IMG/VR virus record: IMGVR_UViG_3300009285_000011
Coordinates: 1-50,241 of that record
Reading direction: 5' to 3' (one strand)
Source: a virus
DNA length: 50,241 nt
Made by a program: the position numbers and the translations under genes. The notes under the pieces are model-generated. The model saw only the letters and a program-made list of their open reading frames with translations. It was not told the DNA's origin and did no database searches. Shown piece after piece: positions 35,319-35,553 of the stretch (the stretch's first letter is position 1; the number at the start of each line of letters is the position of its first letter).

Positions 35319-35553
35319 CGAGAAGCTAGTTAATCAATGGAAACTAAGAGCATGATGCGAGCTAGTCAATAGATGAAACCCAACGCCCGGATGCGAGCTA
35401 GTCGATAGATGAAACCTAATCGGAAGATGCGAGCTAATTCCGCAATGAAACCCAAAAAGAAGATGCGAGCTATCTGATCTATGAAACCTAATCAATGTAT
35501 GCGAGCTATGCTATACATGAAACCCAAAGCCAAAATGCGAACGGAGATTACGA
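35319..35553 (+). repeat. array of ~6.5 tandem 36-bp units (ATGCGAGCTA-N8-ATGAAACCYAA-N7)
   Basis: Exact-phase units start at 35355, 35391, 35427, 35463 and 35499. A degenerate unit lies at 35319-35354 and a partial unit starts at 35535. The array ends 1 nt from the ATG at 35554. Confidence 0.9.

Follow-up and report, generated by a model that had tools for sequence, protein, structure and literature searches.

A tandem array with a 36-nt period lies within positions 35319–35553 of a 50,241-nt stretch of viral DNA (the window; positions 1 to 50,241 of the IMG/VR virus record IMGVR_UViG_3300009285_000011) and runs directly into the open reading frame (ORF) at 35554–36270. We conclude, with high confidence, that array and gene together constitute a dual-repeat TIGR (Tandem Interspaced Guide RNA)-TasA system in the genome of a tailed phage that comes from groundwater metagenomes. 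TIGR-Tas systems are compact RNA-guided DNA binders or cutters that need no protospacer-adjacent motif (PAM), and they currently attract interest as tools of genome engineering. This kind of system is already known, and the locus is not categorically new; it provides a clean phage-borne TasA example, in which an upstream array is fused to the leader of the gene and the repeats carry a CUA variant of box C.

Anatomy of the array and its protein

TIGR-Tas systems are defined by two distinct, alternating repeats of 8–12 nt and spacers of 9 nt, arranged in a 36-nt unit (Faure et al., Science 2025, PMC12045711). Their arrays flank the gene for a Nop-domain Tas protein, upstream, downstream or both, are prevalent in phages and in Candidate Phyla Radiation (CPR) bacteria, and bear a 5′-truncated first edge repeat as a hallmark, together with a 3′-truncated last one (PMC12045711). 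The window contains a two-repeat 36-nt unit adjacent to, and on the same strand as, a gene whose product shows Tas coiled-coil and Nop homology, a tyrosine/histidine (Y/H) pair and neither an HNH nor a RuvC domain. UG is present in both repeats, box C is a variant (CUA in the edge repeat, CCA or CUA in the loop repeat) of the usual CCA, and the terminal edge repeats are truncated, the first keeping only AGCUA and the last only UGCGA.

The periodicity of the array is strict. Tandem Repeats Finder reported a period of 36 nt with 5.2 copies (score 137) as well as a 72-nt super-period (score 194), and a repeat search of the window recovered six array copies at a spacing of exactly 36 nt. The two-box pattern TGCGAGCYA-N9-TGAAACCYA occurs five times with zero mismatches, always inside the array; when up to three mismatches are allowed, 0.13 chance matches are expected, and six or more matches were obtained in none of 100 shuffles. 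The original prediction, made from the letters of the window alone, had described five exact-phase units (at 35355, 35391, 35427, 35463 and 35499) between a degenerate leading unit and a partial trailing one, with in-frame stops (TAG at 35370 and 35406, TGA at 35475); our analysis reproduces these coordinates and has the leading unit start at 35319 and the trailing one at 35535.

Each unit divides into 9+9+9+9 nt, namely an edge repeat (UGCGAGCUA), spacer A, a loop repeat (UGAAACC(C/U)A) and spacer B, with UG (box D) opening and CYA (box C) closing both repeats. An invariant A forms the last base of every spacer and also the first base of every spacer B, so that the truly variable stretches measure 8 and 7 nt, the lengths given in the original prediction. 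That prediction had also placed an ATG at every box; the regularity is genuine, one ATG every 18 nt in a single frame, and each ATG is simply box D (UG) following the invariant A.

On the + strand, six 36-nt tigRNA (TIGR guide RNA) units, t0 to t5, together with a terminal half edge repeat, span 35320–35540. The first edge repeat (GAGAAGCUA, 35320–35328) is 5′-truncated or degenerate, matching the consensus only in its 3′ half, AGCUA, which includes box C. The remainder of t0 (35329–35355) consists of spacer A GUUAAUCAA (35329–35337), the loop UGGAAACUA (35338–35346) and spacer B AGAGCAUGA (35347–35355); its loop agrees with the consensus at 7/9 positions and has boxes D and C intact, meaning that the leading unit, previously described as degenerate, has a truncated edge and retains the AGCUA half and a loop with both boxes. 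Five complete units follow, each opening with the edge repeat UGCGAGCUA: t1 (35356–35391) continues with spacer A GUCAAUAGA, loop UGAAACCCA and spacer B ACGCCCGGA, t2 (35392–35427) with GUCGAUAGA, UGAAACCUA and AUCGGAAGA, t3 (35428–35463) with AUUCCGCAA, UGAAACCCA and AAAAGAAGA, t4 (35464–35499) with UCUGAUCUA, UGAAACCUA and AUCAAUGUA, and t5 (35500–35535) with UGCUAUACA, UGAAACCCA and AAGCCAAAA, in the same order. A 3′-truncated edge repeat, UGCGA (35536–35540), closes t5 and supplies its predicted 3′ processing site. Only 2 nt further on, and 7 nt before the ATG, stands a GGAG (35543–35546, + strand) that resembles a Shine-Dalgarno sequence and presumably serves the downstream gene.

The five full edge repeats are identical, and the loops vary at a single position within box C. 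While box C reads CUA in all edge repeats, most relatives having CCA, the loop box C alternates strictly between 35374 and 35526 (CCA, CUA, CCA, CUA, CCA), which gives rise to the 72-nt super-period. On its own, the RNA of the array does not fold stably (z = +1.19), which is what one would expect of tigRNAs of the dual-repeat type, and an Rfam scan of window positions 34000–37000 with E up to 10 returned no match in the array. A rho-independent terminator after the array, typical of TIGR though not obligatory, was not found on the + strand, where the array runs into the ribosome-binding site of the gene; hairpin terminators do close the downstream arrays of relatives.

The gene that follows, tasA (35554–36270, + strand), encodes a 238-aa protein that combines a coiled-coil with a Nop domain, lacks a nuclease domain and contains the residue pair Y209/H216. 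In Pfam the product matches Transposase_20 only, and weakly (E 5.7e-4; 20.7 bits, under the 21.3-bit cut-off), while PHROGs labels it 'transposase'. PHROGs is older than the description of TIGR. A phmmer search against PDB sequences instead retrieved TaTasR (9mty, E 5.4e-24) and SpTasH (21kl/9w0x, E 2.3e-19), the former carrying the Foldseek label 'TIGR-TasR in complex with tigRNA and target DNA'. An AlphaFold2 model of the protein, built from 39 homologues, is all-helical and shows the coiled-coil and Nop parts with high confidence (predicted local distance difference test, pLDDT, 92.5; predicted template modelling score, pTM, 0.87). When this model was compared with the PDB in Foldseek, the 11 best matches were all TasH or TasR chains (query-based TM-score, TMq, 0.63–0.81), headed by the TasH-tigRNA-DNA complex 9w04 (TMq 0.81), with the bridge recombinases IS621 and ISCro4 coming next at about E 1e-4.

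Sequence identity to TasH and TasR in the Foldseek alignments is 23–30%. The alignments span TasH residues 70–311 and TasR residues 154–320, the HNH or RuvC part being absent; because they begin only at these residues, the nuclease domains are missing and the protein is a TasA, which would be expected to bind DNA and not to cleave it. In the alignment with SpTasH, Y209 and H216 fall on Y289 and H296, reported as the catalytic residues of metal-independent pre-tigRNA maturation (PMC13421893). Across the 39 homologues H216 never varies, while conservation of Y209 is at least 90%, and by analogy with SpTasH the Y209/H216 pair probably cuts the pre-tigRNA.

The Nop-like RNA-binding domain is held in common with the IS110 family, which accounts for both the weak Transposase_20 match and the IS621 matches in Foldseek. 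The description of the gene as IS110-like in the original prediction is thus justified as remote homology through this shared domain, and goes too far in that the protein has no IS110 catalytic domain. We rejected an IS110 transposase or bridge recombinase, as there is no DEDD_Tnp_IS110 match, the Transposase_20 score is below the cut-off, and the structural match to IS621 covers only the Nop-like part (target-based TM-score, TMt, ~0.44).

Just 5′ of the array, the window also contains a perfect 11-bp inverted repeat (CCCGCCGCTGC / GCAGCGGCGGG; 35231–35310) with a 58-nt loop and no U-tail, and the 184 nt upstream of the array form two hairpins and fold more stably than shuffled sequence (z = -2.2). 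Candidate roles for these structures are those of a leader element, of a processing site or of a terminator of the preceding gene.

Array-gene pairing in related loci

More than 200 homologues of TasA, about 225–245 aa in length, were found in phage, prophage, CPR, Chloroflexota and archaeal contexts. We fetched ~45 distinct related loci (given L numbers below where they need to be told apart) and scored their self-similarity at lags of 30–43 nt; in most of them the strongest lag was exactly 36 nt and adjoined the gene. In about 40 unrelated loci of phages, prophages and CPR bacteria, arrays of the same type adjoin a homologous gene, whether upstream of tasA, downstream of it or on both sides, and always on the strand of the gene. 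Upstream TIGR arrays, as in the window, are documented (PMC12045711).

Across the related arrays the consensus unit is (A/U)GCGAGCCA-N9-(A/U)GnAACCCA-N9. Box D covaries between edge and loop repeats, being UG/UG in 10 arrays (the window included) and AG/AG in 23, with two exceptions (AG/UG and AG/AU). Faure et al. attributed such covariation of edge and loop boxes to binding by a symmetric dimer (PMC12045711).

Three loci, L060–L062, whose proteins are 58–69% identical, share their repeats while their spacers are entirely different, and their arrays flank the gene on both sides. The downstream arrays of these loci start on the stop codon, and in L060 and L061 a GC-rich hairpin then follows (in L062 the contig ends first). 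A terminal half edge repeat is found exactly 19 nt before the tasA start codon both in the window (35535–35556) and in L060–L062; with its preceding A, it reads AUGCGA in the window, L060 (2980–3003) and L061 (510–531), and ACGCGA in L062 (1055–1077). This spacing puts the tasA start codon 1 nt from the expected start of the next loop repeat, a coincidence that the original prediction had correctly noted for the ATG at 35554.

A 42%-identical TasA, annotated as 'hypothetical protein', is encoded by the cultured cyanophage Microcystis phage Mvi-JY20 (PP438412.1; L083). Its genome contains an unannotated TIGR array of about nine units (L083 2675–3035, about 22090–22450 of the phage) that starts on the tasA stop codon and ends in AUGCGA and a rho-independent terminator; a small - strand ORF, XAI95462.1, has been annotated inside the array.

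The tasA gene of the window is itself close to a published record. Table S1 of Faure et al. 2025 (PMC12045711) lists IMG_3300025012 Ga0209727_1025141 548_1265, which is our contig L018 and belongs to the same phage as the window, and the protein of this entry is one residue apart from the window TasA (T44 for P44), at the codon of the single-nucleotide polymorphism (SNP) at 35683. With one residue between them, the tasA gene is already catalogued as a member of the family; an individual description of the window array was not found in the literature. The same phage is present in ten groundwater metagenome contigs, and the array is identical in all of them, so that spacer turnover cannot be read from the phage population.

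Some spacers within the array resemble each other. Spacer A of t1 (35365–35373, GTCAATAGA) differs from that of t2 (35401–35409, GTCGATAGA) by one base, the B spacers of the two units being unrelated. Over 343 units from 32 loci, 20 within-array spacer pairs were at most 1 nt apart, against ~4 expected from between-array rates, and near-duplicate spacers within one array also occur in L024, L025, L055 and L061. These near-duplicates hint either that arrays grow by duplication of half-units or that guides share half-sites.

Proposed mechanism and the search for targets

Our proposal for how the locus works is modelled on characterised relatives, the contribution of the present data being the anatomy of the array, the homology and fold of the protein, its processing residues and the association of array and gene. 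What the Tas protein binds, in the TIGR systems that have been characterised, is the transcript of the array and not the array DNA, and it helps to cut this transcript into 36-nt guides (PMC12045711; PMC13421893). These tigRNAs guide the Tas protein to other DNA and are not known to control the tas gene itself. Two suggestions of the original prediction acquire a changed meaning from this. It had considered a binding array for the downstream protein, there called a helix-hairpin-helix (HhH) protein, and Tas proteins do bind the product of the array, as transcript and not as DNA; it had also considered processed small RNAs controlling that gene, and the transcript is indeed cut into 36-nt guide RNAs, with no known control of the tas gene.

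Transferred to the window, this scheme would have the array transcribed on the + strand, probably together with tasA, and TasA binding the pre-tigRNA by way of the two boxes, D (UG) and C (CYA), that edge and loop repeats both contain. The transcript would be cut in the middle of the edge repeats, probably by Y209/H216 of TasA, to yield six 36-nt tigRNAs. [quoted passage not shown] TasA binds 36-nt RNAs (PMC12045711), and the MbTasA ribonucleoprotein binds target DNA and represses transcription reversibly (bioRxiv 10.64898/2026.09.09.750476).

The fusion of the array end to the tasA leader suggests a further possibility. A cut at the last half edge repeat would free a tasA mRNA with a leader of ~15 nt that retains the Shine-Dalgarno sequence, whereas TasA on the uncut precursor would sit right beside that sequence. 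Guide maturation might thus plausibly be coupled to TasA translation, as a form of autoregulation.

Several points weigh against a working TIGR-TasA system of this kind. A promoter scan detected no + strand sigma-70-like promoter upstream of the array, which would leave transcription to read-through or to an unrecognised promoter; as neither a promoter nor a terminator flanks the array on the + strand, co-transcription with neighbouring genes and tasA is likely. Every edge repeat has CUA as its box C, where CCA is usual. Repression has been shown for a different orthologue, MbTasA, and PlTasA, of solved structure, uses stem-loop guides. Finally, no convincing target emerged in the window, in 640 kb of related loci or, by exact scans with t1 and t2, in viral contigs.

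For the target searches, a geometry of spacer A followed by the reverse complement (rc) of spacer B, A + rc(B), was derived from three published statements, one on the 8-nt 3′ overhangs, one giving the 'C - 5' rule and one placing box C at the unwinding junction; because one published sentence ('cut 3' to the nucleotide') does not fit this arrangement, both geometries were searched. Within the window, two tandem-spacer geometries and two controls, with gaps of 0–2 and up to four mismatches, gave similar match counts, controls included. Nor was there any enrichment when the 343 tigRNA units of 32 loci were compared with 640 kb (both strands counted) of the window and related loci, where the functional geometry produced 20 matches, 19 of them with two mismatches and 1 with a single mismatch, against 19–24 for the four others. 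An exact 18-mer scan of viral contigs gave no match for t2 and one for t1. The latter (L063, 12333–12350) falls in a hypothetical ORF of a high-GC viral contig without similarity to the window and is at chance level. By our own estimate, an 18-mer is expected by chance a few times in a viral-contig collection of that size.

The closest candidate within the phage is a site for t0 at window positions 12095–12114 (noted together with 12131–12196, - strand), which matches at 16/18 positions in the A + rc(B) geometry with a 2-bp gap. It overlaps the start codon of the ORF at 11769–12113 (- strand) and lies downstream of a promoter-like TTGACA-17-TATTGT site and a GC-rich hairpin, the former being the only consensus-like promoter in the gap between the genes at 12241–13656 and 11769–12113. 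If true, the site would be a natural TIGR target and t0 an RNA-guided switch on a phage operon. A two-mismatch match like this one arises in 7/300 shuffled guide sets, and both mismatches fall at the published 'seed' positions 3–4, which are the least tolerated in TasR; on these two grounds the match is probably due to chance, and we consider it improbable that a guide of the array regulates the phage's own genes at this site. Natural TIGR targets are in general hard, or not yet possible, to identify, since the short spacers make calling difficult (PMC12045711; PMC13421893). Candidates for what the guides address are the host, a rival mobile element and the phage itself.

Alternative readings, related systems and phage context

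The alternative that survives best, unlikely as it is, holds that the locus is a decaying or inactive TIGR system whose guides no longer work, for example because box C has drifted to CUA. The edge box C of CUA, the alternation of the loop box C between CCA and CUA and the failure of the searches made to find a target would all agree with decay, as would the small array of only six units with none downstream, close relatives having arrays on both sides. Yet no difference separates the five edge repeats, the loops vary only at a single position of box C, the protein is full length, with a high-confidence model and with residues invariant in the family, the Y/H pair included, and the array is the same in ten independently assembled groundwater metagenome contigs. 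CUA-type repeats moreover recur in the viral contigs L002 and L003, suggesting that CUA is a working variant.

A role for the array as DNA, be it as the iterons of an origin, a centromere for partition or operators for the downstream helix-hairpin-helix protein, appears very improbable. Evenly spaced direct repeats beside the gene of a nucleic-acid-binding protein would suit such a role, and TasA loci occasionally stand in an operon with parB-like genes (Faure et al., PMC12045711). The repeats, however, have the strand-specific UG...CYA anatomy of tigRNAs, close relatives keep the boxes constant while the variable segments differ completely, the arrays lie on either side of tasA and always on its strand, and TasA is homologous to proteins whose structures were solved with exactly such RNAs. 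Iterons, which the original prediction had put forward, fail because the array travels with tasA and not with replication genes, the initiator and helicase genes (28357–31601) being located 4–7 kb upstream, and an iteron-type origin was rejected on this co-occurrence. The partition site proposed there fares no better, as the array likewise does not travel with partition genes, and the neighbouring genes scanned against Pfam yielded no ParA/ParB and no other informative domain.

Least credible of all, close to negligible, is a translated or regulatory leader in which micro-uORFs (small upstream ORFs) at each ATG tune tasA translation, another idea of the original prediction for which we found no support: an ATG does recur at 18-nt intervals in a single frame, and the array adjoins the ribosome-binding site of tasA, but box D is AG in most relatives, which therefore have no ATG in an otherwise equal array, no Shine-Dalgarno sequence precedes the internal ATGs, and arrays also occur downstream of the gene.

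With a TIGR-TasA system as the preferred reading, the nearest known counterparts are the dual-repeat TIGR-TasA loci, such as FpTIGR of Flavonifractor plautii (PMC12045711). The window shares with them box D (UG) and box C, the truncated terminal edge repeats and a solo coiled-coil and Nop partner of about 230 aa in a phage. It differs in the CUA box C of its edge repeats and the alternating CCA/CUA loops, and in that its array lies upstream only and leads straight into the tasA ribosome-binding site with no terminator; with six units it falls at the low end of the usual 5–15. SpTasH (Salicola phage CGphi29) and TaTasR (PDB 9w04, 21kl, 9mty) have a homologous coiled-coil and Nop core and dual-repeat 36-nt guides, and SpTasH has the Y/H pair for pre-tigRNA processing in common with the window TasA (Y209/H216); both are nuclease-bearing, whereas the window TasA has no HNH or RuvC domain. 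MbTasA and PlTasA (bioRxiv 10.64898/2026.09.09.750476, 10.64898/2026.08.11.744272) are nuclease-free, and their RNA-guided binding and reversible repression may serve as a functional model by analogy. The window locus is of the dual-repeat type with the Y/H pair.

More distant systems share single features. IS110 bridge-RNA recombinases (IS621, PDB 8wt6/8wt9) have the Nop-like RNA-binding domain, but the window has no DEDD/RuvC-like catalytic domain, bridge RNA or element ends, and its RNA is a guide array rather than a single two-loop RNA. In box C/D small ribonucleoproteins (Nop5-fibrillarin-L7Ae) a Nop-domain dimer is likewise built on a coiled coil, and two short antisense elements are flanked by C and D boxes; their target is RNA, that of TIGR DNA. 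A box C/D sRNA (small RNA) was rejected for the array, which has UG and CYA in place of the kink-turn (K-turn) boxes RUGAUGA/CUGA and no Rfam match, and no fibrillarin or L7Ae partner was found among 17 neighbouring ORFs scanned against Pfam. Arrays of clustered regularly interspaced short palindromic repeats (CRISPR) are similarly processed, from repeats and spacers, into guides for an adjacent effector, whereas in TIGR two different short repeats alternate, and the 9-nt spacers are split so that both strands of the DNA are read. A CRISPR array was rejected here, since in place of a single repeat of 25–36 nt with spacers of similar length we find two different 9-nt repeats and 9-nt spacers. 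For TIGR, in contrast to CRISPR, we know of no reported PAM and of no adaptation genes.

Three small points deserve attention, namely box C in its CUA variant, the conserved way in which the array end is fused to the tasA leader and the presence of near-duplicate spacers in one and the same array. As a test case, the locus could be used to study co-transcription of array and tasA, self-processing by the Y/H pair in a TasA and the tolerance of variation in box C. A practical lesson is that 36-nt two-box arrays adjoining 'Transposase_20-only' genes should be called as TIGR-Tas.

The remainder of the window is that of a tailed phage, with a large terminase gene at 20449–21669, an O-like replication initiator at 28357–29703 and a DnaB-like helicase at 29700–31601, and the TIGR locus lies within a + strand block of small early-type genes. 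An ORF of 890 aa at 15161–17833 (- strand) contains a head-maturation-protease-like region; its C-terminal third matches two PHROGs, one for an ADP-ribosyltransferase exoenzyme toxin (E 1e-19) and one for a head-maturation protease.

Two other sets of tandem repeats occur in the window. Those of 15 and 45 nt at 34205–34501 encode the pentapeptide repeats of the ORF at 34136–34741 (Pfam Pentapeptide, E 1.4e-35) and have no relation to the TIGR array. The GC-rich repeats of 9, 12 and 24 nt (GCGGCGTSGGCT-like) at 25047–25230, in the ORF at 24547–25290, are presumably low-complexity coding sequence.

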